A stretch of 64,000 bases of DNA from a virus: positions 96,709 to 160,708 of the IMG/VR virus record IMGVR_UViG_3300009709_000003; one strand, written 5' to 3'. The notes under the pieces were generated by a model. It saw only the letters and a program-made list of their open reading frames with translations, ran no database searches and was not told the DNA's origin. The stretch's first letter is position 1. Every line of letters starts with the position of its first letter. Positions 7,720 to 56,650 of this stretch are shown here, in pieces. Position numbers and translations under genes: made by a program.

Positions 7720-7735
7720 TGGCACGGAATTTGCA
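7720..7735 (+). promoter_or_regulatory. sigma54 (-24/-12) promoter
   Basis: TGGCACGGAATTTGCA matches TGGCAC-N5-TTGCA; intergenic; followed by AGGAG and ATG at 7758. Confidence 0.7.
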
Positions 7736-24313: not shown

Positions 24314-24570
24314 TACCTAAAAATAGCAACAGGGTATTAACAAACAATACAGGTATCGGAGATACACTATTATGGCAGAAGTTAGGATTAAACTTAAAAA
24401 GAAATTTTCAAACGATGGAACAGAGTATTACATCGGCAACTGTGATCTAGAGCTGAACTTAGCCGACACCGTTATCATGGTATACCCAAACGACGATGAT
24501 AAGGGTGCGACACTCATTGTACGTGTCTACAATGAGGACATGCGTAAAACTGCTGGCCACGATCCAGAAA

Positions 24571-25776
24571 ATGATTGATCAAAATTTTGCAGATTTCATA
24601 CGTCTGGCACCCAAAGCTGATTTGCATCAGCATCTCGGTGGCTCTATTCGTTTGAGCACAATATTGGATCTGGCTGAACGTAATCGTATAAAACTGCCCT
24701 ATCAAACTATAGATGGGCTACAACAGAATGTATTTAAGCGACAATATGACTCATTGGCAGAGTACTTAGAATGTTTCAAATACACCAGTCTGGTAAGTCA
24801 AACCGGAGAAGCTCTTACTCGCATCGGATACGAATCCGTAGTTGACAATTATGCAGATGGAGTTACCCACCTAGAACTTAGATTTGCACCACATTTGCAC
24901 GTTTCTCATAAAGATGGCGTTATAGATGCAATCAAATCAGTGTATGAGGGGATGAAATTAGCTGCAGATGAGATAAACGCGTCGAATCCAAAAATACCAT
25001 TTAACTTTGGTATTATATGTATTGCCATGCGACACGTAACTCCAGAGAGTAGTCCATACTTTCATAGACTTGGCACGACACTAACTCTACAGGAAGCTTC
25101 CTTAAATTTGGTCCATACCGCCACATATCTCAAGTCAAGGAAACTTTACAATGTGGTTGGCTTTGATTTGGCGGGTCCTGAAAATACATTTCCTGCTAAA
25201 ACGCATGCAAAGGCGTTTAGACATGCTTTTGAAAGTTTTCTTGGGACCACCGTGCACGCCGGAGAGGCATACGGGCCAGAATCTATTTATCAAGCAATCA
25301 CCGATCTCTGTACAACCCGCATTGGGCATGGAACAAACCTATTGCGCACAGACATGATTAAAAAGTTCTCTAAACAAGAAGATAAACAATCCTATGTAGA
25401 CGGATTGGTAGAGACCCTATCTAACAGGCGTATTCCTATAGAGATATGTTTGACCAGCAATATGATGGTAAATCCTGTAATGTGGGATAACCCTACCACT
25501 CATCCAATGAAAAATTTTATGGATAAGGGTCTAGCTTGCGTGTTGGCTACAGATAACAGAACAGTATGCAACACTACTCTAAGTAAAGAGTTCATGTTGG
25601 CTAAGGAAACATTTAACTTGTCTCTACAAGATGTAAAGAAACTTGTAATTCGAGGATTTAAACACGGATTTTACGCCGAACCCTATGTAGAAAAACGGGA
25701 CTACGTGCGAAAAGTTATCGATGTTTATGAAGATTTGGAACTGAAATATTTTGGTGTGGTAAGTCCACGATATTAA
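24571..25776 (+). CDS. add: adenosine deaminase family protein
   Basis: PKADLHQHLGGS, LELRFAP, GFDLAGPE, TVHAGE, RIGHG, EICLTSN, ATDN; start at 24571 overlaps the upstream ORF. Confidence 0.92.
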   Translation: MIDQNFADFIRLAPKADLHQHLGGSIRLSTILDLAERNRIKLPYQTIDGLQQNVFKRQYDSLAEYLECFKYTSLVSQTGEALTRIGYESVVDNYADGVTHLELRFAPHLHVSHKDGVIDAIKSVYEGMKLAADEINASNPKIPFNFGIICIAMRHVTPESSPYFHRLGTTLTLQEASLNLVHTATYLKSRKLYNVVGFDLAGPENTFPAKTHAKAFRHAFESFLGTTVHAGEAYGPESIYQAITDLCTTRIGHGTNLLRTDMIKKFSKQEDKQSYVDGLVETLSNRRIPIEICLTSNMMVNPVMWDNPTTHPMKNFMDKGLACVLATDNRTVCNTTLSKEFMLAKETFNLSLQDVKKLVIRGFKHGFYAEPYVEKRDYVRKVIDVYEDLELKYFGVVSPRY

Positions 25777-30804: not shown

Positions 30805-31188
30805 TTATTCTTTTGTAGTTTGTTCCAACAATTTTACCAAATCATATACCATAGATTTCGCAGAAAGATACAGACTGTTGGCAAGAGAGTATTCACGCCC
30901 ATACAAATATGTACGCAAATAACAAACTAAATCTAAAGCCTCCTGCAATGAATCAATCAGTTGGTCACGACCATTGCCGGGTTGAAGGTGCACACCATGC
31001 TTTCTAACACCTTCCTTATCTCTAGCTTTCATGATTTCAATGGTGTGATTGAATGTTTCAATACTATGTTGTATACCACCAACATGTTTCATATCTGCTA
31101 TGACGTCATCAATAACCAAATCCCAAGAATGCGGATTATCATTTTTGGTTGGTGGCTGTTGTTCCGTGATTAATTCTTGTGTATTCAT
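30805..31188 (-). CDS. all-alpha NTP pyrophosphohydrolase (MazG-superfamily)-like protein
   Basis: RDKEGVRKHG..L...NGRDQLIDSLQEALDLVCYL acidic helix pattern. Confidence 0.5.
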   Translation of the reverse strand: MNTQELITEQQPPTKNDNPHSWDLVIDDVIADMKHVGGIQHSIETFNHTIEIMKARDKEGVRKHGVHLQPGNGRDQLIDSLQEALDLVCYLRTYLYGREYSLANSLYLSAKSMVYDLVKLLEQTTKE

Positions 31189-31868
31189 GCTAGGTTACTC
31201 ATCTTTGCCGGATTGAAATAATCGTATTCCGGAGGACTTACCACTTGTCCTTGTCGTTTTTTCCAGTTGGCCAGATCTTCGAACTGGTCTCGCAGCCATT
31301 CGTATTGGTTCTCGCAAAGACTTTTAATCGTTTTTGGGAACTTCGGGTTTATTTCGGCCATACGAATCAAAACTTTACCGGTCATCGTGGCGTCGTGGAT
31401 GGCGCGGTGTGCACCTAGATACTCAAATCCAAACTTATCGGCCGCGTTGATAAGTTTCTTTCCCTTCGACATTTTATAGAATTTACGATATAAAACTAGT
31501 ACGTCTATCACTGGTTTAGATGGAAACTTATATCCTGCAGCTTCCAATTGTCTACCAAGAATACGACGGTCGAATTCGTAATTGTAGGCGGCAATGTAAT
31601 CAGCATATTGCAGTATGCTTACAATTGTAGCTGCATAATGCTCAAATGGTTTTGAGTCTGCGACGTCTTGATTCGATATATTATGAATCGCGGTAGCTGA
31701 TGCCGGAATAGGAATCGTCGGCTTTACGAATTCCCCGTATTCGGTAACAAGTTCTCCATTTTCAAATATGGAGAACCCAAATTCGCAAATTTCATCCGTG
31801 CTTGTTAGTCCGGTGGTTTCCGTATCAAATACTACAATTCTTTTATTTAGGTAATCAGGCTTGGCCAT
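31185..31868 (-). CDS. dnaQ: DnaQ-like 3'-5' exonuclease (Pol III epsilon-like)
   Basis: FDTETTGL, AYNYEFD, HRAIHDA. Confidence 0.92.
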   Translation of the reverse strand: MAKPDYLNKRIVVFDTETTGLTSTDEICEFGFSIFENGELVTEYGEFVKPTIPIPASATAIHNISNQDVADSKPFEHYAATIVSILQYADYIAAYNYEFDRRILGRQLEAAGYKFPSKPVIDVLVLYRKFYKMSKGKKLINAADKFGFEYLGAHRAIHDATMTGKVLIRMAEINPKFPKTIKSLCENQYEWLRDQFEDLANWKKRQGQVVSPPEYDYFNPAKMSNLA

Positions 31869-32387: not shown

Positions 32388-35300
32388 TTAGACATGTTCA
32401 TTTCCGGTGTTCAAAATAATTTTAAATCCATTATCGTGCTCGTCTGCGACTCGCTCAATACTAGCGGGACTCATCAGCACACTACCCATCTCCAGTAAAT
32501 GTTTTTCTCCAAATTTACGTAACTTTGAAGGTTCACCACCGAAAGATTTTACAATATCGACCGCTTTATTAGCGTCATTGATTAGGAGACCAAATACTGG
32601 AATGCCATTCATAAGAGGGATCACTTGCTTTACCCGTAAGGCATACACAGATGGGTCAAACTTATCTGTTGCTACCGTACATTCAATAGCAAACATTTGT
32701 CCTTCAGTAAGGATACCCTCTAAAGCATTACACTGTGGAGACCATACCATTATTCTATAAGTTGTGTACAAATCACTTATCCCAAATGAAATATAAGGAT
32801 CGCCACGCTTGGTGATGGCATGTTTCACATAATCAACCATGCCAAATAGCAGCAGCAAATCACCAACCACACATTCCTCAACCATAGACGGTGTAACTAC
32901 CTGATGTGATTGTACTTCAATAAAATTTGCCAACCTTTGATAAACAGCTGCGGGGTGTCCGGTGATGTAAGAGTTCAACACTTCGCGTTCATGCTGCTGT
33001 CGCTTGATATCATCAAATTCGTTGCCACGTAGTGCACATTGTGTAAGGATCACCAAAGGTGGGACCTTTGACCCATCGAAAGATTTATTGCGCTTTTTAG
33101 CGAAATCGCATATAATACTCAGGTTGTCCAACTTATCGCGATCAGTAATGCTAACATCCCATCGAAATGCGCCAGCTTTAACCAAATTCTCCTTAGCTTT
33201 TTTATTGACAGATGGCATACGCTGACAAAACTCAACAAATGAAGTAAACTTACCATTCGCGGCTCGTTCTTCGATAATAGCTTGAGCCGCCTTACCTACA
33301 CCTTTAATGGCAGAAAGTCCCATATAAAGGACATTGTCACTCCCTACGGTGTATGTGTTGTTTGATTCATTGGCGTGTGGGGGTACGATCTGCACACCTT
33401 TACGTTGAATGTTCTTAATAATATCAGCAGCGCGCTCTTTTTTGTCCGTGTTACGATCTAACAAAGCCGCATAGTAATGTAGCGGGTAATGTGCTTCCAA
33501 ATAAGCGGTAATATACGTAATGCGTCCGTACGAGGCACTGTGACTACTATTCCAAAGGTATCTAGCGTAGCCGGTCAATCGACCGATCAATTCATCTACC
33601 CAAACTTCTTTAGTGCGTGGTTGACCATTTTGGGGTTGCCAATTGGCAGGTAGATCTACCTTAGGATTGGCAAGAACTCCAGCACGAAACTTTGCGAGCT
33701 GTGCATTTACAACATCTGCGTTCTTTTTACCGATACCAGCACGGAACTTATCCGCGTCTGTGCCAGAAAAACCAGCCAAAATGCGCGACATCGCCATGGC
33801 ACCTTCTTGATAGATGATGGCTCCGTAAGTAGGTGCCAAAACCTCATCCATAAGAGGATGCCAACTTTCAACAAGCTCCCTACCGTGTCTACGATTTACA
33901 TATGATGCAGTTGCTCCAGATTCCAAAGGACCTGGTCGATACAGAGCATTAAGAGCTGCAACATGGTGAAAATTAGCAGGTTTAAGCTGCTTCGCCAATT
34001 TCCTATACCCGGGGGAGTCCAACTGAAATAAAGATACATACTCCCCAGTGCCTACCAAATCCATAGATGGTTCATCATCGTATGGCAGGTCATGCATATT
34101 GGTGGTGACGCCTGCACGATCAAATGCATCTTGAATAATATCTAAGGTTTTAACACCAAGCATATCTAGTTTAAGCAAACCAAGTACACCACAGTCTGCC
34201 ATGTCATACTGAATGCCTAGAATACCGGTATTTGATGGCAGGATGGGTGAGATGTCCTCAAGAGGATCATTCGAAATAACAACACCTGCAGCATGGAAAC
34301 CAATATTTTTCGCTAAGTCGATTAGAACTTCAGCATTGTCTAGCCAACCATCCCATTCAGCGATTTGACGCTTCGCATCAGCTGGAATATCGTCTATGGT
34401 TTGAGCGGCATGTGGAATCAGCTTACGAATAGCACGATTCTCTGAAAATGGTATATTAAGAATACGACCAACGTTATCTAACGCTGCAAGGACGCCCAAA
34501 GTTTGGAACGTGGCAATCTGCGCTGTGCTGTTGACGCCATATTTTTCTGCGATATGGGCCAACACAGAAGGACGACCATCTTGAGAAATATCAGTATCGA
34601 TATCTGGAAGGTCCTTACGTCCTTCATTGATGAATCGCTCAAACGGCAAATCCCAACGGATTGGGTCCAATTCTGTAATACCAAGAAGATAACATACTAA
34701 GGAACCGCCTGCAGAACCACGACCTGCAGCCTTTGGCAACCTTTTAGATACCATGAAGTCAACAATTTCTTTAATGATCAAGAAGTAACTTGAAAACTTC
34801 TTGGACTCCATCATTGTCAATTCTACTTCCAGTCGATCCACGTATACTTGATTCTCGTGTAGATTTTTACGGATCAACCCGGCATGTGCTTCTTCTCGTA
34901 GCAGTGCAGCGGACTCTGCTATAGACAGATTCCTACCACCCTCATCCTTGAAGTTAGGAATAATGAAACTATTATTTACAACGTTGTAAGGCTCGATAGA
35001 GTTCGCGATATGCACAGAGTTGTCGTAAGCTTCTTGTGGTAGAGCCAAAGCCGCCATTTCGTCCTTGCTCTTAAAATAGTGTTGATCTGATCCATGCATG
35101 TCTAAATTATATTTATTAATCTGCAAGGCTACCAGATGTGCGGTTGCATGGGATTGCAGAGTGTAATGTACCGCATTGGTTGCCACTAAAGGCAGATTAT
35201 GCTTTTTTGAGAGAACTTGAGAATTCTCCAAATATATAGCTTCTTGAGAAGCGAAATCTCCTTTTAGGAGATGTTTGTATATCTCGATGTAAACGGGAGA

Positions 35301-35873
35301 TAATGCTTTTTTGAGATAAATTAAAGCCGCGTCGAATTCATTGTAAGGCACTTCTTGTGGAACCAGGATTATGACGTCGCGCGCTGTAAGAATGTCTTGC
35401 CCATGAAGACCAACCTTAGATTTACTCAGTGGCTCCACATGTGCTTTTGTATTAAGACGAACAAGTTGCTTGTATCCATTGGAGTTTTTAGCTATGACGG
35501 TTATTCGAAACGAGCCACCATCCAACAAAACTTCAAAATTAGTACCGACAATAGGTTTTATGCCTGCAGCTTCACAATCTTTAATAAAAGATGGAGCCCC
35601 ACACAACAGATCATAGTCTGTCTTAGCAAGATATTCATATCCCATTGCCTTTGATAGTGGAATAAGATCTTCGGTTTTGCAAATGCCCTTTAAAAGGGAC
35701 ATGTGGGTGTGAACACGCAAATGCACAAAGTCTGTGCTAATTTCCTCATTTACGTTACCACAAGATTGACAAATCCAAGTTGAAATCTCTGGTTCGTAAA
35801 CGTGATCAGGATGACTACAGCCGCAATCAAAACCACTCTCATCTTCTTGATTAGTCACTTGACTCGGCTCCAC
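32388..35873 (-). CDS. dnaE: DNA polymerase III alpha subunit (family C)
   Basis: PHP FVHLRVHT; GRGSAGGSLVCYLLGIT; FERFIN; PDIDTD; HAAGVVI; KLDMLG; RPGP; C-terminal OB fold. Confidence 0.97.
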   Translation of the reverse strand: MEPSQVTNQEDESGFDCGCSHPDHVYEPEISTWICQSCGNVNEEISTDFVHLRVHTHMSLLKGICKTEDLIPLSKAMGYEYLAKTDYDLLCGAPSFIKDCEAAGIKPIVGTNFEVLLDGGSFRITVIAKNSNGYKQLVRLNTKAHVEPLSKSKVGLHGQDILTARDVIILVPQEVPYNEFDAALIYLKKALSPVYIEIYKHLLKGDFASQEAIYLENSQVLSKKHNLPLVATNAVHYTLQSHATAHLVALQINKYNLDMHGSDQHYFKSKDEMAALALPQEAYDNSVHIANSIEPYNVVNNSFIIPNFKDEGGRNLSIAESAALLREEAHAGLIRKNLHENQVYVDRLEVELTMMESKKFSSYFLIIKEIVDFMVSKRLPKAAGRGSAGGSLVCYLLGITELDPIRWDLPFERFINEGRKDLPDIDTDISQDGRPSVLAHIAEKYGVNSTAQIATFQTLGVLAALDNVGRILNIPFSENRAIRKLIPHAAQTIDDIPADAKRQIAEWDGWLDNAEVLIDLAKNIGFHAAGVVISNDPLEDISPILPSNTGILGIQYDMADCGVLGLLKLDMLGVKTLDIIQDAFDRAGVTTNMHDLPYDDEPSMDLVGTGEYVSLFQLDSPGYRKLAKQLKPANFHHVAALNALYRPGPLESGATASYVNRRHGRELVESWHPLMDEVLAPTYGAIIYQEGAMAMSRILAGFSGTDADKFRAGIGKKNADVVNAQLAKFRAGVLANPKVDLPANWQPQNGQPRTKEVWVDELIGRLTGYARYLWNSSHSASYGRITYITAYLEAHYPLHYYAALLDRNTDKKERAADIIKNIQRKGVQIVPPHANESNNTYTVGSDNVLYMGLSAIKGVGKAAQAIIEERAANGKFTSFVEFCQRMPSVNKKAKENLVKAGAFRWDVSITDRDKLDNLSIICDFAKKRNKSFDGSKVPPLVILTQCALRGNEFDDIKRQQHEREVLNSYITGHPAAVYQRLANFIEVQSHQVVTPSMVEECVVGDLLLLFGMVDYVKHAITKRGDPYISFGISDLYTTYRIMVWSPQCNALEGILTEGQMFAIECTVATDKFDPSVYALRVKQVIPLMNGIPVFGLLINDANKAVDIVKSFGGEPSKLRKFGEKHLLEMGSVLMSPASIERVADEHDNGFKIILNTGNEHV

Positions 35874-38636: not shown

Positions 38637-38864
38637 TCATTTTTTGATCCTATCCAACCAAGTCAATTTAACACTCAAACGTTCACCAGACAACAAAGGA
38701 GTCGTAATGTCAAAATAATCACAACGTTGGCGTAATTTAACACACTCGACTATAAATTTAGCAGTTTCTTCAAAATCTTCATAGGCTCCTGGCAATCCTA
38801 TGTCAATGCCTACTGCATATGCCCACTCTATAACTTCATCAGGTGTATTCAGATCGTATTTCAT
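38637..38864 (-). CDS. hypothetical protein, ETAxxIAECxRLR paralogue family
   Basis: YDLNTPDEVIEWA...ETAKFIVECVKLR. Confidence 0.7.
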   Translation of the reverse strand: MKYDLNTPDEVIEWAYAVGIDIGLPGAYEDFEETAKFIVECVKLRQRCDYFDITTPLLSGERLSVKLTWLDRIKK

Positions 38865-39715
38865 ACTTTAAACCTTGTGATGTTCTCTTCGTTAGGTAAT
38901 GAATATCTATAAGAGTACCAACCCACAAAATTACCAGCTTTAGTATAGGAGTCGTTGAGTTGGGCAGCTTGATGCTCAAATGGCGACATGTGACCAGAGT
39001 TAAGCAACCTATCGTGTAACGACAAGTCTTTATTTGGATCAGGTTGAGACCCATCGTGATTCAACGTACTAACGCGTGCACATCTAGCCGCACTAAATTT
39101 TTTAAGATTTTCCTGATTAAATCTAGTGTGTTCGTCAGAACTTATCAACGGCAAGTGCCAACTGTCGGCATCGAGTTGAGTTGGTTCACTCTGACAGTAC
39201 ACTTTAAACATTGCATTAGCCAACACTTGAAATTCGGGTTGAGCGTCTGAATGAGTACGCAATCCAAAAAAATTATCCCATTCAGTGGCTGTAACTATCG
39301 TTGTAGAATACTGTGTCCACTCTAAAGGTCTGTTAGCGGTTTGTTTATGAAGACCCAAGTCTGCCATTTTTTGGACTTCTTTTGCGGTATGAATTGCCAA
39401 ATTGCGCCAAATTAACTCTACTTGCTTAGACGCTTCCGGATCCATTTCTTCAGTGGCCTGCATTCCAGGTTTATTCTTCATCCAAACTGCCGGCATTGCC
39501 GGATCTTGCATCGCTGCTTGCACGGTTTTGCTTATGGGTATAGCACGAGAGGAAGCCGTTGACCTAGAAAAAACCCGATGGGTGTTAAACTCGGCTAACA
39601 AATAACGATGATAGTGAAGTACAAACGTGGTAATACGTTTCCCACTTAAAGATATAGAGTCTGCCACTATCTTTGCTGTCGGTTGCATGCATGCCTTAAG
39701 TATTGGTACTGCCAA
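38861..39715 (-). CDS. thyX: flavin-dependent thymidylate synthase (phage ThyX type)
   Basis: EFNTHRVFSRSTASSRAIP, HKQTANR, AQPEFQ, ARCARVS, HMSPFEHQA. Confidence 0.88.
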   Translation of the reverse strand: MAVPILKACMQPTAKIVADSISLSGKRITTFVLHYHRYLLAEFNTHRVFSRSTASSRAIPISKTVQAAMQDPAMPAVWMKNKPGMQATEEMDPEASKQVELIWRNLAIHTAKEVQKMADLGLHKQTANRPLEWTQYSTTIVTATEWDNFFGLRTHSDAQPEFQVLANAMFKVYCQSEPTQLDADSWHLPLISSDEHTRFNQENLKKFSAARCARVSTLNHDGSQPDPNKDLSLHDRLLNSGHMSPFEHQAAQLNDSYTKAGNFVGWYSYRYSLPNEENITRFKV

Positions 39716-40139
39716 ATCCTGTAGTACCGCGTATGGTGGTGGGTAACTTATCAGTTACCTCTATAATTGGCACTACAGAAGGGAAAAATACCAATTGTGC
39801 AAGACGATCCCCATTAACCACGTGGGCGTCAACTTTAGTTGGATTAAATACAAAAATATGCAAAGATCCAACATACTCACAGTCAATTGTGCCATCCATC
39901 ACCATCAAATTGCGTTTAGCAAACGTGGATGAACGCGAACGAATGGATGCCCAATATCCATCAGGAATTTTCACAGACACGCCCGTAGCGATATTTGCAA
40001 AAGTACCAGGAGGAATCACAAGCACATTGTCTGGGATCCAACATTTCAAATCAAAACCCACATCTCCCGGTTTAGCAGGCCAGGACAGTGGATGATCGTT
40101 TTTACAGTCTTTATCTACCAATACTTTAAGTGTCTGCAT
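39696..40139 (-). CDS. dut: trimeric dUTPase
   Basis: GFDL, RSRSS, GTIDCEYVG, GDRLAQLV, RGTTGFGST. Confidence 0.95.
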   Translation of the reverse strand: MQTLKVLVDKDCKNDHPLSWPAKPGDVGFDLKCWIPDNVLVIPPGTFANIATGVSVKIPDGYWASIRSRSSTFAKRNLMVMDGTIDCEYVGSLHIFVFNPTKVDAHVVNGDRLAQLVFFPSVVPIIEVTDKLPTTIRGTTGFGSTNT

Positions 40140-40141
40140 AA

Positions 40142-40624
40142 TTATTGTTGCTCCGTATTTACGTTAAATCTTTTAGGATAGTTATTTGCTAACTTATTTA
40201 AGTTTGCCAAAGCATCATTCACAGCAATGCGCAATTTGCTCATGGCGTCTTGACTATCTGAGGACACCACCACCGCACCCTGGCACTCGTAATACTTTAG
40301 ATACATAGATTTACGCATATCAGTGTAGATAATAAGTGGAATATTAAATTCAGCTGCGGTAGCGATCTCAATCGGCGTGCCAACAGAAGGACTTTTAGAA
40401 GAAATGTAAGCAACCACCAAATTTGACTCTCTGAGAGCATTCATGTTTACGTTGTAAACAAATTCCACAGCCGTATTATCAATTACGGACCCAACAGTAA
40501 AAGCTTCTGCCGGGTTGTAAAACACTGTTTCGGGATTGGCGGTAAGGATGTATTCCTTTAATTTATCTTTCCAAGACTGTTTTTCATTATTGTAATCAAT
40601 AGGTCCTGCAGTATAAATAACCAT
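40142..40624 (-). CDS. nucleoside 2-deoxyribosyltransferase / dNMP N-glycosidase-like protein
   Basis: IYTAGP, YNPA, SVGTPIE (catalytic Tyr/Glu positions); start at 40624. Confidence 0.78.
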   Translation of the reverse strand: MVIYTAGPIDYNNEKQSWKDKLKEYILTANPETVFYNPAEAFTVGSVIDNTAVEFVYNVNMNALRESNLVVAYISSKSPSVGTPIEIATAAEFNIPLIIYTDMRKSMYLKYYECQGAVVVSSDSQDAMSKLRIAVNDALANLNKLANNYPKRFNVNTEQQ

Positions 40625-40625
40625 C

Positions 40626-41198
40626 TTATTTCCTAAGTCCCAACAGTTTTGCAAATTGTTTGACAGCATAACCTAAATCGTCATTTACTATCATATAGTA
40701 GGGTATACCCACCTGGTTCATGCGTAGTTCCATTTTATAATTCTCAGCTACTTGTACATCTATTTTCTTCTTAATAAAGAACTCGGCATCTTGCTCGTCA
40801 CGCATACGCAACTTAGCTCTCGACACCAAATCGGAAGCTGTAATGTTAATTACACATCCGTGCAGTTCTGTACCAACAAGCCCGTGGTTCAGAGCCCAAT
40901 CCAGTTGATCTACTGATCGTGGAAAACCATCAAGAATTATCAATTCTGCACCATGATTCCACATATACTCAATTTTTTCAAGGATTAGTGCACGTAAAAT
41001 ATCTTCCTTGGGGTATAAATACCCATTTCGCATGTGTTCAAAATCTTCTGGTGTGGATATTGCACGTACTATATCACCAGTACGAATAACCGTCATTAAC
41101 TCTTTAGATGCCTCTACTACCGCATTTACAACAGTAGATTTACCTGCTGCTGGAGGCCCATTTACAAATATGATACCCTTTTTATATCTCATGATCAA
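40626..41198 (-). CDS. adenylate-kinase-family NMP kinase
   Basis: GPPAAGKST, TGDIVR, LDGFPRS..Q. Confidence 0.9.
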   Translation of the reverse strand: MIMRYKKGIIFVNGPPAAGKSTVVNAVVEASKELMTVIRTGDIVRAISTPEDFEHMRNGYLYPKEDILRALILEKIEYMWNHGAELIILDGFPRSVDQLDWALNHGLVGTELHGCVINITASDLVSRAKLRMRDEQDAEFFIKKKIDVQVAENYKMELRMNQVGIPYYMIVNDDLGYAVKQFAKLLGLRK

Positions 41199-44790: not shown

Positions 44791-45185
44791 AATTCAACCT
44801 TCCATCTAGGTGTAAATGGAATATCTGAAGCAGACGTCTCAGTGATATTGTCAATATAATATGATTTAACATGGTTTAGTGATTGTTCAACTGCGTAAAA
44901 CAACACGCCACTTTTACCATTACGCAGTGAGTAAGGTTCCACCAATCTCTTTGTACCATTGTACTTTATATATACCATTCTGAGCCGTTGAGCCGATTTA
45001 CGAATGGTAGCAAGCTTATTGGCGGCCTCCATATATGGTTGCGTATCAGACATCTGAGTTACAGGTTCTGCCGGCGCAACATCTTTTTCCTGAATAGCAG
45101 GAAGCGTATGGTGAATACTCTGAGGAGTGATCGACGGGGTTAAACGTCGAACGGTGTCAACGATACGATCAAACAGTTTACTCAT
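44787..45185 (-). CDS. stand-alone WYL-domain protein
   Basis: IKY....RLVEPYSL......FYA.......KSYYIDNI......F.PR. Confidence 0.75.
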   Translation of the reverse strand: MSKLFDRIVDTVRRLTPSITPQSIHHTLPAIQEKDVAPAEPVTQMSDTQPYMEAANKLATIRKSAQRLRMVYIKYNGTKRLVEPYSLRNGKSGVLFYAVEQSLNHVKSYYIDNITETSASDIPFTPRWKVEF

Positions 45186-45709
45186 TTATTTACATACTCT
45201 AAATATTCGCGAGATGGTACGATACCTTGTTGACCTTGATACTTACCGTTGTATGCTGGTCCATCTCCAATGACTTCATAAAAGTAGATCTGGGCAATCC
45301 TCATATTAGAATAAACACGAATAGGATGAGATGCTACTATTTCTAATGTCCAAGTGCCACTCCATCCGATGTCTCCAAATCCAGCGGTTTGATGAATCTG
45401 TAGTCCAAGTCTACCAATCGAACTGACACCCGATAGACATGGAACATATTTCTTAGAACCAGTAGTTTCTGTAGTATAGCCCAAATATAAAACACCCTGC
45501 TCAAGTACATATCCATCATCTGGTATGGTAATAATCTCATATGGGTTGCGCGATTTTGGGTCAATTACACGCTGTGTGTAAACGGACAGCTGAGATCCTA
45601 AATGGAGATTATATGAATTGGGGTTTACTTTCGTAGGATCAAAACCCGTAATTTCGATATCACCTTTATTTACAGCCTCTGCAATTGCATTTCCACTTAG
45701 CATTGCCAT
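45182..45709 (-). CDS. dcd: dCTP deaminase
   Basis: NPNSYNLHL, SSIGRLG, AGFGDIGWSGTWTLEI, IAQ, YNGKYQGQ. Confidence 0.93.
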   Translation of the reverse strand: MAMLSGNAIAEAVNKGDIEITGFDPTKVNPNSYNLHLGSQLSVYTQRVIDPKSRNPYEIITIPDDGYVLEQGVLYLGYTTETTGSKKYVPCLSGVSSIGRLGLQIHQTAGFGDIGWSGTWTLEIVASHPIRVYSNMRIAQIYFYEVIGDGPAYNGKYQGQQGIVPSREYLEYVNK

Positions 45710-50994: not shown

Positions 50995-52122
50995 CTATTT
51001 CAAATACACATAATCATTATGGTCTGGACCTGTACCGATCATAACAACAGGTAGATTAGTAGTTACTTCCATCTTGTCTACGAAGGCCCGCACCAATGGA
51101 TGCATAGTCTCAAATTCTTTACGACCACCCCTGACCTTGTATGCTGACCAATGCAAATATTGTGGAAAATTAAGAATTAGTTTAGTTGCGCCACCAAAGT
51201 CTGCTGACTCTTTCAATAACTGCCATGACTGATCGAACACGCGACGAACTTTTTTCGTAACTGTGGTTTTCTCCCTCTCAGAGAGAGTGTCTATCATATA
51301 TTGAGGCATTTCGGCCTCTTTCCCTACCTGAGCCCAAGTTACTTCATGCTGATCTGACATGACGTCACCAGAGTAGCCAATTTGAACTCCGCTAGAATCG
51401 TAGTTATTACCCACCCGGATCGGAAACGTACGAACGTTCATATAAACGTCACCCACCATGCTAGGCAGAATGCCAAAATCAGCATATGCTTGTTGTGGGG
51501 TACAATCACGAAATGTGCAAAATGGATAATGCGTACCATGATTTAAAGACAGCGCAAAACCTTGTGACACTTCATGAAGGAAAGACCCATTCTGTAGAGC
51601 AGCACGTACCGCATACACATACTCCATAGGCGTCATGGCGTGATGCAATTCCCCCCACAATTCGACATCCTGCTGACGCATAGCTTTATCGGTATACGCA
51701 GCACCGCTACCCGACATCGTAGAGGAAATACGTAAAGTAGATTGTGTGCCACCCTGTGCCTCAGCGTCTCTGTGGCGTTGTTCAACAATCATAGCTCTGG
51801 GATGAATATTTACATCAGACAAACTGTATCCGGTTTGGCTAAGTTCTTTACGTAATTGTTGTCTTTCTATACCAGAGTTGGGACCAACCCACAGTTTAGA
51901 AACCTTAGTAGCAAGTACAGTAGATTTAAGTGCGGCTCCAGTTGGTAAGATTTTACCAACAAATTTATACTCACCATTGATGTAAGTATGTCCAGCGTTT
52001 GGATAATTCAGTGACGATAGATTAGGTGTATCAAAAATATCTGCCAGACGAGACGATGCGGCTCCTTTAGCGGAGCTGCCCCAAGCACTATCGTATATAG
52101 AATTGAACTTATTACCAATCAT
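50995..52122 (-). CDS. purZ: PurZ-like adenylosuccinate synthetase paralogue
   Basis: WGSSAKG (Ser where PurA has the catalytic Asp of GDEGKG), PNAGHT, SQG...YPFCT, RTFPIRV, TTVTKKVRR, LNFPQY in place of TKLD; 375 aa. Confidence 0.8.
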   Translation of the reverse strand: MIGNKFNSIYDSAWGSSAKGAASSRLADIFDTPNLSSLNYPNAGHTYINGEYKFVGKILPTGAALKSTVLATKVSKLWVGPNSGIERQQLRKELSQTGYSLSDVNIHPRAMIVEQRHRDAEAQGGTQSTLRISSTMSGSGAAYTDKAMRQQDVELWGELHHAMTPMEYVYAVRAALQNGSFLHEVSQGFALSLNHGTHYPFCTFRDCTPQQAYADFGILPSMVGDVYMNVRTFPIRVGNNYDSSGVQIGYSGDVMSDQHEVTWAQVGKEAEMPQYMIDTLSEREKTTVTKKVRRVFDQSWQLLKESADFGGATKLILNFPQYLHWSAYKVRGGRKEFETMHPLVRAFVDKMEVTTNLPVVMIGTGPDHNDYVYLK

Positions 52123-52369: not shown

Positions 52370-53368
52370 TTAAAACTTTTCGTCAAAAGATACATTACCA
52401 TCTACAGCACTGATATAATTCGTAACTCGCGCTTCGAAAAAATTAGTGTGTACCTGGGTATCATTTAAAATCATAAAATTATATGGGTTCTCCACACCAT
52501 ACATAGGTGCTAAACCAAAATCCTTCATACGCAAATCTGCAGTATATTTAATAAATTGATGCATGCTAGACTTGCTTAGACCAACTACACCATAGTCTAG
52601 CGTATCGTCAGCGAAACCCATCTCACACGCAACGGCCTCTTGAAGCATGCTAGCGACCGACTTATTAAAGGTCGCTGGAAACAAATCAGGACGTTCACGA
52701 CGTACGATATTAATAATCTCTAATGCAAAATTAAGGTGGTTACCTTCATCACGCATAGTCCATTCCGTGCCAGTGCTTAAACCAGGCAATAAACCACGAC
52801 TACGTAAAGCATAAATATATGCAAACGCACTCATGAAAAATAGTCCTTCAACACCTAGAGCAAAAGCTGCCAAATTAATCATAAATTGCTTAATTTGTTC
52901 GTCCGTGTCCAGACTATTGATTGACATGATTGGATCAACCCACTTAGCACAAAATCTAGCCTTTTTGGCTATCGACGGAATTTTCTCTACAGCTTGAAAC
53001 ATTGCTGTGCGTTCATCGTGGTCAGGGACATACGTATCAAGCAGTCTCAAATAGAAATCGACATGGTTATTTTCCTCAAATAACTGTCTGCCTAAATACA
53101 TTCTGGCTTCAGGAGAGTTAATATGCCTATAAAGATTCAAGGCTAAATTATTGGCTACAATAGTGTCTCCTGTAGCAAAAAATGCCACCAAACGATTAAC
53201 CATGTGTCGTTCAGCCGGCGTCAATTTACGTTTAAGATCAATAACATCAGTCTTAAAATCAATTTCCTGTGGAGACCAATTAGAAGCTACCGCATCTGTG
53301 TACATCTTATACAACTGAGGGTATTTCATAGGACGAAGAGTAAGATTTTGGCCAACGTCAAGTATCAT
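52370..53368 (-). CDS. nrdB: ribonucleotide reductase class Ia beta subunit
   Basis: W.PQEI, FFATGD, EENNH..FY, VEGLFF, RDEGNH, NFFE.RV..Y. Confidence 0.96.
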   Translation of the reverse strand: MILDVGQNLTLRPMKYPQLYKMYTDAVASNWSPQEIDFKTDVIDLKRKLTPAERHMVNRLVAFFATGDTIVANNLALNLYRHINSPEARMYLGRQLFEENNHVDFYLRLLDTYVPDHDERTAMFQAVEKIPSIAKKARFCAKWVDPIMSINSLDTDEQIKQFMINLAAFALGVEGLFFMSAFAYIYALRSRGLLPGLSTGTEWTMRDEGNHLNFALEIINIVRRERPDLFPATFNKSVASMLQEAVACEMGFADDTLDYGVVGLSKSSMHQFIKYTADLRMKDFGLAPMYGVENPYNFMILNDTQVHTNFFEARVTNYISAVDGNVSFDEKF

Positions 53369-53383
53369 ACTAAATCCATATAG

Positions 53384-55648
53384 TTATGTGCATGCTTCGC
53401 AATATTCAGGGTTTTCTAAAGAACAAGCAACAGCAGCAGTATCTGTTATGGTAAACTGCTTAAGCTTGGTTGCTGCACGGCTACGCAAATAATAAGAAGA
53501 TTTCAACCCCGAGTCATGCAAATAAGAGTACATGGACGACAGCTTACCGATGGTAGGTTGTTCCATAAACAAATTAAGTGATTGACTCTGGTCTACATAC
53601 GCACCACGCTCTGCTGCCATATCAATAAGTGATTTTTGCGACATTTCCCACGCTGTTTTGTATAGTACTTTTATACTATCAGGCAAACCATTAATATTTT
53701 GAATAGAACCTTCTGCCTGTTTTATGATATTTTTAATCTCGTCAGTCCACATGCCCAATGCACGCAAATGCGACACCAGATATTTATTAATTTGGATAAA
53801 ATCACCCGACATCGTCTTTCTAGTGAAGAGATTTGAAACCAAAGGTTCAATACTCTCATAACAACCAGCTATTGAAGCGATTGTTGCAGTAGGAGCAATC
53901 GCAATCAACAAAGAATTACGCAATCCATGCTGTGCTATTTCAGTTTTTAGAGACGCCCAATCATAATTCATATACGAAGCCGGTTCCTTCCACAAGTCAA
54001 ATTGTAGTAGACCGTTAGCAGCCTTCGTTTCATAAAAAGTTTGATGTGGCCCAAATTTTTTGGCTAACTCGCAAGATGCTCTAAGCGCATAAAAGTAAAT
54101 AGTCTCGTGGATAGAAGTACTTAACTTTTTAGCTTCACTTGACTCGAATGGCAGTCCTAACTTCAAAAATACATCATGCAAACCCATTACACCCAAACCA
54201 ATTGGTCGCCATTGGTTATTCGAGTACTTTGCCTCTTTTATTTGATAAAGATTTCCATCTATTACCCTATCTAGGGATGGCACCACAGACGTTACAATCG
54301 TTCCAAGTAACTCATGATTAAATTGTTTATTCTCAGTTACTAGTTTAGCTAGATTAATAGAACCTAAATTACATACAGCCGTCTCTGACTCTGAAGTAAC
54401 TTCCTCAATTTCAGTGCACAAATTACTACTATGAATAGTACGCCCAGACTTACCAGTCTGGTTGCTCTTTAAATTTGCATGATCTTTGAAGCACATCCAA
54501 CCGTTTCCGGTTTCTCCAATAGTGCGCATCATAGCAGCATACAAAGTTCTAGCAGGTAACTGTTTTTTAGCTAGCCCGCGCTCTTCAGCTTCCATGTATG
54601 CTTCTTCAAAAGAAACACCGTATAGATCAACAAAGTGAGGAACATCTGCGGGGTCAAATAAAGACCATTGCATATCTTTTTCGACACGATGCATAAAGAG
54701 AGATGGAACCCAATTTGCGATGTTAAGATTGTAAGTACGGCGTGATGGATCACCCGTTTGATTTTTTAGTTCCAAAAAATCTTCAATGTCGGCATGCCAT
54801 GTTTCCATGTAAACAGCACAAGCCCCTTTACGTTTTGACCCCTGAGACACAGCTGCAACAGATGAATCTAGAGTTTTGATAAATGGGACAATACCAAATG
54901 ACTTACCATTTGTACCACGAATCAATGATCCCTCTGACCGCAAACGACTAAAGGACACACCTATACCACCAGAAAACTTAGACAGCCGAGCCACATCAGA
55001 ATATGTCTTATAAATAGCCTCTAAATCGTCTTGTGGGCTATCCATTAAAAAACAGGACGACATCTGTGTATGAGTTGTGCCAGAATTAAAAAGCGTAGGA
55101 GATGAAGGCAAATAGGACAAAGTCGCCATCAAATGATACAAATTTAATGCGTCTTCCCTAGTAAAAGAAAGTCCAAGAGCAACACGCATAAAGAAATATT
55201 GAGGAGACTCAATAATCTGTTGAGTAACAGGATCTCTCAACAAATATCTATCGTAAACTGTTTGCAGACCAAAATATTCAAAATGTTTGGTGGTGTAACT
55301 AGCACATATTTCTGGGGACAAATTAAACTTATAAGCAAATGCTAAAGTGCGATCCGAGACTAACTTGGTGGCATGACCGTGTTCAATAGACTCAGTAAAC
55401 GAAGTTATGCCAGATTCCACTAATTCTAGATTGATCTTATCATTTAAAAGATTCACAGCAACCTTAGAATAATTAGGCTCTTGTGCAATCATCATATCTG
55501 CTGTGGTGATAGCGAGATTCACCATTTCTCTATAGGATGTACTATCTGATACACCACTGTAGACCTTTTCTATCAAAACATCAGCGTCTACAAAATCAAC
55601 ATCAACACAAGCGTCCTTAATAAAGGAAAAATTATATGTCGCAGTCAT
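53384..55648 (-). CDS. nrdA: ribonucleotide reductase class Ia alpha subunit
   Basis: PTLFNSG, SSCF, SNLCTEI, VCNLGS, APTAT, SQSLNL, YYLR, C-terminal CEAC. Confidence 0.97.
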   Translation of the reverse strand: MTATYNFSFIKDACVDVDFVDADVLIEKVYSGVSDSTSYREMVNLAITTADMMIAQEPNYSKVAVNLLNDKINLELVESGITSFTESIEHGHATKLVSDRTLAFAYKFNLSPEICASYTTKHFEYFGLQTVYDRYLLRDPVTQQIIESPQYFFMRVALGLSFTREDALNLYHLMATLSYLPSSPTLFNSGTTHTQMSSCFLMDSPQDDLEAIYKTYSDVARLSKFSGGIGVSFSRLRSEGSLIRGTNGKSFGIVPFIKTLDSSVAAVSQGSKRKGACAVYMETWHADIEDFLELKNQTGDPSRRTYNLNIANWVPSLFMHRVEKDMQWSLFDPADVPHFVDLYGVSFEEAYMEAEERGLAKKQLPARTLYAAMMRTIGETGNGWMCFKDHANLKSNQTGKSGRTIHSSNLCTEIEEVTSESETAVCNLGSINLAKLVTENKQFNHELLGTIVTSVVPSLDRVIDGNLYQIKEAKYSNNQWRPIGLGVMGLHDVFLKLGLPFESSEAKKLSTSIHETIYFYALRASCELAKKFGPHQTFYETKAANGLLQFDLWKEPASYMNYDWASLKTEIAQHGLRNSLLIAIAPTATIASIAGCYESIEPLVSNLFTRKTMSGDFIQINKYLVSHLRALGMWTDEIKNIIKQAEGSIQNINGLPDSIKVLYKTAWEMSQKSLIDMAAERGAYVDQSQSLNLFMEQPTIGKLSSMYSYLHDSGLKSSYYLRSRAATKLKQFTITDTAAVACSLENPEYCEACT

Positions 55649-56634: not shown

Positions 56635-56650
56635 TGCAATGCTTGTGCCA
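56635..56650 (-). promoter_or_regulatory. sigma54 (-24/-12) promoter
   Basis: Minus strand TGGCACAAGCATTGCA; intergenic; followed by AAGGAG (56616-56621) and ATG at 56605. Confidence 0.72.

Follow-up and report, generated by a model that had tools for sequence, protein, structure and literature searches.

We tentatively propose that P0001, a phage-encoded enzyme of the adenosine deaminase (ADA) family, deaminates adenine (deoxy)nucleotides as a part of its phage's enzyme kit for 2-aminoadenine (Z) DNA, a reading in which we infer both the substrate and the fate of the product. The gene lies in the IMG/VR virus record IMGVR_UViG_3300009709_000003, which is complete (160,708 bp, with direct terminal repeats) and whose right-hand end, positions 96,709 to 160,708, is the 64,000-nucleotide stretch analysed here (the window; positions of this phage's genes are given within it). 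Phages with Z genomes need both the synthesis of dZTP and the exclusion of dATP from their DNA, and P0001 would serve the second of these needs.

24571..25776, plus strand: ADA-family deaminase P0001, 401 aa, translating without stops

P0001 matches the Pfam family PF00962 (A_deaminase) with E=2.7e-63 and 214.5 bits (cut-off 27) and has what marks this superfamily, namely a profile score above threshold, the (beta/alpha)8 amidohydrolase fold and the zinc-binding and catalytic residues. Its AlphaFold2 model, made from 40 homologues, has a predicted local distance difference test (pLDDT) score of 96.3 and superimposes on mouse ADA (3km8) with Z=44.7 and a root-mean-square deviation of 1.7 A over 333 residues. 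Structures of ADA1, ADAL, ADE and Cad1 tie at Z 40-45 as matches to this model, and the fold is therefore uninformative on the substrate. Alignment to the conserved columns gives H19, H21, H229 and D328 as zinc ligands and E232 and H253 as catalytic residues, found in the motifs H229-A-G-E232, G-H253-G and T-D328-N329. Judged from sequence and model, P0001 would be an active zinc deaminase with the ADA fold and intact catalytic residues, which jointly with the role in the Z-DNA kit makes up the claim that we hold tentatively.

Two positions that contact the substrate in mouse ADA are changed. In HMMER alignments the stretch H19-Q-H21-L-G23-G24 falls on HRHLDG of the bacterial Add 6n91 and HVHLDG of mouse ADA, placing Gly23 at the position of mouse Asp19 and replacing the ribose-binding Asp, just as the initial annotation had read from HQHLGG. 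According to Wilson 1991, as cited in PMC12669630, this Asp contacts both the 5'- and the 3'-hydroxyl of adenosine. The same annotation had called all motifs intact, which holds for the zinc ligands, HAGE and GHG but less so for TDN, since canonical ADA has TDD and Asn329 takes the place of mouse Asp296, the residue contacting N7; among wider relatives Asn is nevertheless the rule at this position (102 of 123 Asp19-type sequences). P0001 thus departs from canonical Add/ADA1 at Asp19, at Asp296 and in its score against the adenosine deaminase equivalog model TIGR01430, where its 213.5 bits fall narrowly below the cut-off of 216.55; against the other NCBIfam ADA models (NF0068xx) it scores far below every cut-off.

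That the ADA fold can accept adenine nucleotides follows from three precedents. In Arabidopsis MAPDA, Asn17 of the motif HxHLNG is one of the ligands of the N6-methyl-AMP phosphate, along with His65, Thr98 and Lys100 (PMC6451127), which bears out a comparison already drawn in the initial annotation. TaqCad1, which converts ATP to ITP, departs from canonical ADA at Gly264 (Asp19) and Asn549 (Asp296), both of which touch ATP, and its variants N549D and N549D/G264D have lost ATP deamination (PMC12669630); BabCad1 takes only ATP, RdrB both ATP and dATP. KomA, a PF00962 protein of the Kongming defence, has its highest activity on dAMP and also takes dADP, AMP and ADP, but not dATP (bioRxiv 10.1101/2024.12.20.629578).

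The assignment to a Z-DNA kit begins with the following gene:

50995..52122, minus strand: succino-amino-deoxyadenylate synthase of the PurZ type, in which Ser takes the place of PurA Asp13 (AWGSSAKG)

Its best PDB matches are the PurZ of phiVC8 (6fm1, 1.3e-29) and of S-2L (7odx, 5.6e-28), and its best NCBIfam model is the PurZ model NF038379, with 177 bits and thus below the cut-off of 300. Ser at the Asp13 position was found in all 147 phage PurZ sequences examined by Poubanne et al. (PMC12884076). By its genes the phage looks like a Z-DNA phage and would carry Z in its DNA. PurZ is located within a minus-strand block of replication and nucleotide genes, which also encodes a RecA-like protein, a UvsW-like helicase and a primase-helicase. 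The further genes for nucleotide metabolism and replication in this block are:

31185..31868, minus strand: DnaQ-like exonuclease
32388..35873, minus strand: DnaE-type (Pol III alpha) replicative polymerase
38861..39715, minus strand: ThyX-type thymidylate synthase
39696..40139, minus strand: protein of the trimeric dUTPase family, a candidate DutZ (dATP/dGTP pyrophosphatase), possibly an ordinary Dut (PF00692, 2.2e-21)
40142..40669, minus strand: nucleoside deoxyribosyltransferase (NDT) family member, a candidate DmtZ-like dAMP N-hydrolase (PF05014, 1.6e-11)
40626..41198, minus strand: nucleoside-monophosphate kinase (ADK/AAA_17)
45182..45709, minus strand: dCTP-deaminase-like protein
52370..55648, minus strand: small and large subunits of ribonucleotide reductase (NrdAB), adjoining purZ

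PurZ actinophages have the nearest relatives of the Dut-like protein, whose best phage matches include that of Microbacterium phage Goodman (41.7% identity), a confirmed PurZ carrier. Bacillus phage vB_BpsS-140 gives the sole phage match of the NDT-like protein and the best match for PurZ as well. A DnaE-type polymerase and a DnaQ-like exonuclease stand in this PurZ phage in place of DpoZ or PrimPol, and no PolA-type DpoZ was found in the genome with phiVC8 DpoZ as the query.

The classical enzymes that keep adenine out of Z genomes are missing. The genome gave no match to PF01966, PF12917, PF03819 or PF12643, covering DatZ-type HD/YfbR proteins, MazG and MazG-like proteins; phmmer found no relatives of phiVC8 DatZ in it, PF04447 (DUF550) gave no match in a search that had no positive control, and a MazG-like gene was likewise found in the window neither by PF03819 and PF12643 nor by Pfam scans of 40 of its open reading frames (ORFs). 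In PurZ0 phages, dutZ and dmtZ are adjacent and DmtZ releases adenine from dAMP (PMC12884076). The neighbouring PF00692 and PF05014 genes of the phage resemble this pair by family and by adjacency, and the deaminase would therefore be an addition to an adenine (A) exclusion kit and not its sole member. The phage is thus without DatZ yet, as far as gene families can tell, probably not without A-exclusion enzymes. In the initial annotation the deaminase had been proposed to deplete dAMP or dATP in place of DatZ; the presence of PurZ and the absence of DatZ, MazG and DUF550 agree with this, but "in place of" is too strong, as the Dut-like and NDT-like pair may form an alternative kit.

In the nucleotide reading, host DNA breakdown and the DutZ-like pyrophosphatase would supply dAMP, which in the absence of DatZ is the expected adenine intermediate instead of deoxyadenosine. 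The deaminase would turn dAMP, as the likeliest substrate, into dIMP, with dADP or dATP being less likely, and would so drain the pool of adenine deoxynucleotides and keep adenine from the dNTPs. The purine product would re-enter salvage, where IMP dehydrogenase and GuaA of the host could lead it via IMP and GMP to dGMP, and PurZ would then use dGMP to make the dZ precursor. IMP dehydrogenase, phosphoribosyltransferase and PurB were not found in the phage genome.

A role in the Z pathway is also suggested by the distribution of such genes in viral contigs. A profile-guided, incomplete pattern scan of IMG/VR gave 13 ADA-family loci, and among the 12 records that could be searched for PurZ two, G001 (103 kb) and G004 (136 kb), encode an adenylosuccinate-synthetase homologue that has the size of a PurZ and shows the Ser signature. 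Starting from PurZ, four of 80 IMG/VR contigs (G001, G004, G042 and G060, all of at least 100 kb) carry an ADA-family gene; with the phage described here included, such a gene is found in 5 of the 11 PurZ records that reach 100 kb, while the 70 shorter records have none. As a control we used 47 PurZ-less, DnaE-encoding viral contigs of 61-260 kb, none of which has an ADA-family gene. The resulting enrichment (4/10 versus 0/47, hypergeometric) has p about 5e-4, p about 3e-3 when G004 and G042 are counted as one lineage, and p about 0.01-0.04 when only controls of 100 kb or more are used. A DatZ-type (YfbR-like) gene occurs in 16 of the 20 small PurZ contigs that are near-complete, versus none of the 11 large ones, so that the large PurZ phages as a group are without the classical dATPase. 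Both the co-occurrence with purZ and the absence of datZ which the initial annotation had set as a check on its proposal are thus seen among the large contigs, in comparisons that genome size and phylogeny confound. PF05014 has no match in the other large PurZ contigs. The recurrence of ADA-type deaminases in large DatZ-less PurZ phages points to an undescribed route of adenine disposal. In its widest form, namely that these phages exclude adenine by deamination of dAMP or dATP and recycle it through IMP dehydrogenase and GMP synthase to dGMP and then dZ, and that such a full route from adenine to 2-aminoadenine was put together independently by four or more phage lineages with deaminases of three subtypes, the idea appears doubtful to us.

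Another large contig, G013 (L033, 168,948 bp), encodes a PurZ about 66% identical to that of the phage described here, whereas only 11 ORFs match between the two genomes and no deaminase was found in G013. This suggests, as judged from the protein comparisons, that purZ has moved horizontally between large phages that are not related to each other.

The deaminases of the other PurZ contigs are not orthologues of P0001, as they share 22-34% identity with it and fall into different clades. Those of G001 (HLHLDG) and G060 (HQHVDG) keep the Asp. The deaminase of G004 and G042 is of a Glu type (HLHIEG) and is nearest to PA0148 from P. aeruginosa (3ou8, E=5.8e-119), reportedly characterised as an adenine deaminase, followed by 3rys (7.3e-108), whose PDB title is adenine deaminase. 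In these two related 136-kb contigs an IMP dehydrogenase without CBS domain overlaps the deaminase start from upstream (G004, L028:4858-6967; G042, L124:9193-11296), and its score of 393 bits with TIGR01302 compares with 184 bits for GMP reductase models. This gene pair suggests a flow from A to I to X to G, in which adenine would pass over hypoxanthine/IMP to XMP and on to the guanine nucleotides from which both dG and dZ derive. The predicted common denominator of the PurZ-phage deaminases is that they take the 6-amino group off adenine compounds. The association with purZ spans Asp, Glu and Gly subtypes; it speaks for a role in the Z pathway, independently of the change from Asp to Gly.

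In G001 (L022:16358-19098) the deaminase gene stands in a co-oriented run of genes for a Dut-like protein, a 180-aa ORF of no family, a nucleoside-monophosphate kinase, the deaminase and a primase-helicase, and the replication module of this contig is syntenic with that of the phage described here at 23-42% protein identity. The contig also encodes a 1654-aa ribonucleotide reductase of class II, split by intein and LAGLIDADG domains (L022:11376-16343).

The Glu-type enzymes raise the possibility that P0001 acts on free adenine, which the NDT/DmtZ-like hydrolase would release from dAMP; deamination would then block the re-salvage of adenine and give hypoxanthine for IMP. The phage does have an NDT-family gene, the DmtZ reaction named above yields just this substrate, the G004/G042 enzyme is very near to PA0148 and then to an adenine deaminase, and a substrate without ribose requires no Asp19. 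We nevertheless consider it very unlikely, since 3ou8 and 3rys have Glu (HxHxEG) where P0001 has Gly, and P0001 belongs to a different clade.

To judge what Gly23 may mean we turn to the relatives of P0001. The 119 closest database proteins are bacterial, 400-420 aa long and 43-48% identical to it, and 117 of them have Asp at this position and two have Gly, one of these two being a housekeeping bacterial orthologue. About 140 representatives from 50%-identity clusters include 6 with the motif LGG. Gly at this position is thus rare without being unique. In the phylogenetic tree P0001 is a long branch (1.28) within a clade of proteins of about 400 aa (support 95), and the change from Asp to Gly has arisen in it at least three times. 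Of 156 columns with at least 85% conservation, P0001 also differs from the consensus of its clade at 31, while other members do so at 5 in the median and at 15 at most, and it alters three of 66 strictly invariant columns (Y100H, G206T and T300V). Its overall identity to the clade is, however, 45% compared with a clade mean of 59%, and part of the excess changes is therefore plain divergence. Taken alone, Gly23 is suggestive but not diagnostic.

Four Gly-type proteins scattered in the database (P0183, P0191, P0229 and P0256) have Asn109 and Tyr110 (P0001 numbering) instead of the usual Leu and His, and they possibly form a specificity subgroup distinct from P0001.

The same relatives allow for a more conventional explanation, in which P0001 is an ordinary (deoxy)adenosine deaminase from a bacterium that works in purine salvage and tolerates Gly without a switch of substrate. 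It would then convert the host adenine pool to inosine, hypoxanthine and finally guanine nucleotides, for which a Z phage has a doubled demand. The nearest relatives, at 43-48% identity, come from bacteria, carry the name adenosine deaminase and have housekeeping contexts, the hydrophobic residues of the purine/ribose subsite (L62, Y65, L66 and F69) are retained, the PurZ contigs G001 and G060 have enzymes that keep Asp, and Gly also occurs in a housekeeping orthologue, P0082. Asp19, however, is the residue that contacts both hydroxyls in ADA and shows 98% conservation within the clade, the TIGR01430 score stays below the cut-off, P0001 is changed at many invariant positions, and with neither DatZ nor a recognised 5'-nucleotidase there is no evident source of deoxyadenosine in the phage. 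We regard this explanation as unlikely.

Several points weigh against a nucleotide substrate and keep our proposal tentative. The Gly-type P0082 is 76% identical to the Asp-type P0110 and is encoded directly after cysS on an Elusimicrobiaceae chromosome, and since Gly is found in this housekeeping orthologue the change from Asp to Gly alone need not switch the substrate. The other PurZ-phage deaminases have Asp or Glu at the position of Gly23. P0001 does not belong to the Gly-type subgroup with Asn109 and Tyr110, as it has neither residue. Asn at the Asp296 position is common to the relatives generally, which reduces the match to Cad1 to one residue, and Cad1 is distant in sequence (9c67, E=7.5e-15, compared with 3e-36 for 6n91). 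Thr98 and Lys100 of MAPDA correspond to Ala106 and His108 in P0001, in an uncertain manual mapping via mouse ADA. The deaminase gene belongs to a separate island on the plus strand, 13 kb away from the block of nucleotide-metabolism genes. The route itself also has a cost, as dIMP can become dITP, which is incorporable and mutagenic and is the alarm signal of Kongming. The action on phosphorylated substrates put forward in the initial annotation hence keeps the precedents of MAPDA and Cad1 but is weakened in its argument from Gly23, which occurs in a housekeeping orthologue as well and on which the purZ association does not depend.

The island consists of the deaminase gene and one small ORF amid minus-strand genes:

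24372..24578, plus strand: 68-aa ORF without a known family, whose stop overlaps the deaminase ATG by 8 nt (ATGATTGA)

A GGAGA lies 10 nt upstream of the ATG of this ORF, and because of the 8-nt overlap translational coupling with the deaminase is possible. A longer in-frame start of the deaminase exists at 24496, but we prefer 24571 because it matches the N-termini of the homologues and overlaps the stop of the 68-aa ORF. No sigma-54-type promoter was found upstream of the deaminase. Exact TGGCAC-N5-TTGCA sites of this type occur twice in the window, at 7720-7735 (plus strand) and 56635-56650 (minus strand); at up to 2 mismatches there are 27 sites in the window versus 21.6 in shuffles, which is no excess, and sigma-70-like and terminator-like sites show no excess over chance either. 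The ORFs flanking the deaminase belong to phage families or to no family in a PHROGs scan, PF01725 and PF13289 not having been searched genome-wide. The sole sequencing run containing sequence of the phage is a moss metagenome, a possible source, and no RNA run is listed for it.

A small, separately oriented and accessory-like island would suit a function in counter-defence or host takeover, in which P0001 destroys cyclic oligoadenylate or cAMP signals or arrests the host by converting ATP to ITP, and the pair of Gly and Asn is that of the ATP deaminase Cad1. This appears highly improbable to us, since P0001 is without a sensor or partner domain, no precedent for an action of the ADA fold on cyclic oligoadenylates was found, the enrichment in PurZ phages would be left unexplained and a loss of ATP through deamination would be harmful to the replication of the phage itself. 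We found nothing in support of a destruction of immune signals, nor of a recycling of Z nucleotides to G, both of which the initial annotation had considered.

That ADA genes are rare in phages, as had been stated there, agrees with all searches made. P0001 has no PHROG match, an exact-peptide scan of IMG/VR gave no close viral relatives, and a megablast of the deaminase gene found no match in GenBank phages; tblastn gave 8 weak matches to ADA in 50,697 GenBank phage records, and the 13 loci of the incomplete IMG/VR scan are equally few. Among 1.8 billion representatives P0001 is a singleton at 50% identity.

If P0001 does deaminate adenine nucleotides, base deamination would be a chemically distinct and purine-conserving solution to A exclusion, and it could account for large PurZ phages that have DnaE-type polymerases and no DatZ. 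It would tie the Z pathway to the IMP-to-GMP branch of the host, with one lineage bringing its own IMP dehydrogenase beside the deaminase, and would be a natural example of how the pocket of the ADA fold is re-tuned among substrates that are bases, nucleosides or nucleotides. The set of enzymes for making Z-DNA in cells could also gain a stand-alone (d)adenylate deaminase. The link between deaminated dIMP or dITP and the Kongming alarm raises a question about an arms race. In whole-word searches the word "deaminase" was absent from a set of Z-phage papers that extends to 2026 and includes PMC12884076, bioRxiv 10.1101/2025.10.22.683976, PMC8342488 and PMC8065100, and we found no literature linking a phage ADA to 2-aminoadenine. 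P0001 is a new member of a known superfamily, and its proposed use would be a variant of the known remodelling of nucleotide pools in Z-genome phages.

Compared with known enzymes, P0001 is closest to a bacterial clade of "adenosine deaminase family proteins" of about 400 aa from Elusimicrobiota, Myxococcota, Bradymonadia and Planctomycetota, with the identity of 43-48% extending over the full length. It shares with them the length class, the TDN motif, the catalytic residues and NF006847 as the nearest NCBIfam model, and differs by Gly instead of Asp at position 23 and by the 31 changed positions of 156. P0001 is a phage protein, while the genes of the two relatives that were checked have housekeeping settings, P0082 as described above and P0002 beside dapA/dapB. 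To our knowledge no member of this clade has been characterised biochemically. The adenine deaminase-like ADE type (PA0148, AAur1117) has Glu at the Asp19 position (HLHLEG in 3ou8, HLHIEG in 3rys, compared with HQHLGG in P0001) and is a separate clade in the tree, and P0001 is not of this type.

MAPDA/ADAL, the N6-methyl-AMP deaminases (6ijm, 8qch), share the fold (Z 39-43 to the P0001 model) and the replacement of Asp19, at a position which in MAPDA faces the 5'-phosphate; the residue there is Asn and not Gly, and with the phosphate ligands apparently unmatched, on the same uncertain manual mapping, P0001 was not assigned to them. Cad1/CAAD of type III CRISPR systems (9c67, 9ebt, 8z3k) is similar in its ADA fold (Z about 42) and has the same pair of Gly and Asn (G264/N549 compared with G23/N329). 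Cad1, however, has a CARF sensor domain and is an effector of host defence, whereas P0001 is a phage enzyme without CARF whose ADA domain spans residue 8 to about 390, and because of the missing CARF and the distant sequence P0001 is not a Cad1. KomA, which we set beside P0001 by its description, is a case of a PF00962 fold taking deoxyadenylate, and acts together with the HAM1-like KomB and the SIR2 protein KomC in a bacterial operon that makes an alarm signal.

By its proposed role P0001 would stand next to the A-exclusion enzymes DatZ, MazZ/DUF550, DutZ, DUF5664 and DmtZ, which remove adenine deoxynucleotides in PurZ phages, and would add one more case to the functional convergence described for them (PMC12884076). 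Whereas these enzymes hydrolyse phosphate or glycosidic bonds, P0001, with its unrelated fold, would reach the same end by deaminating the base.

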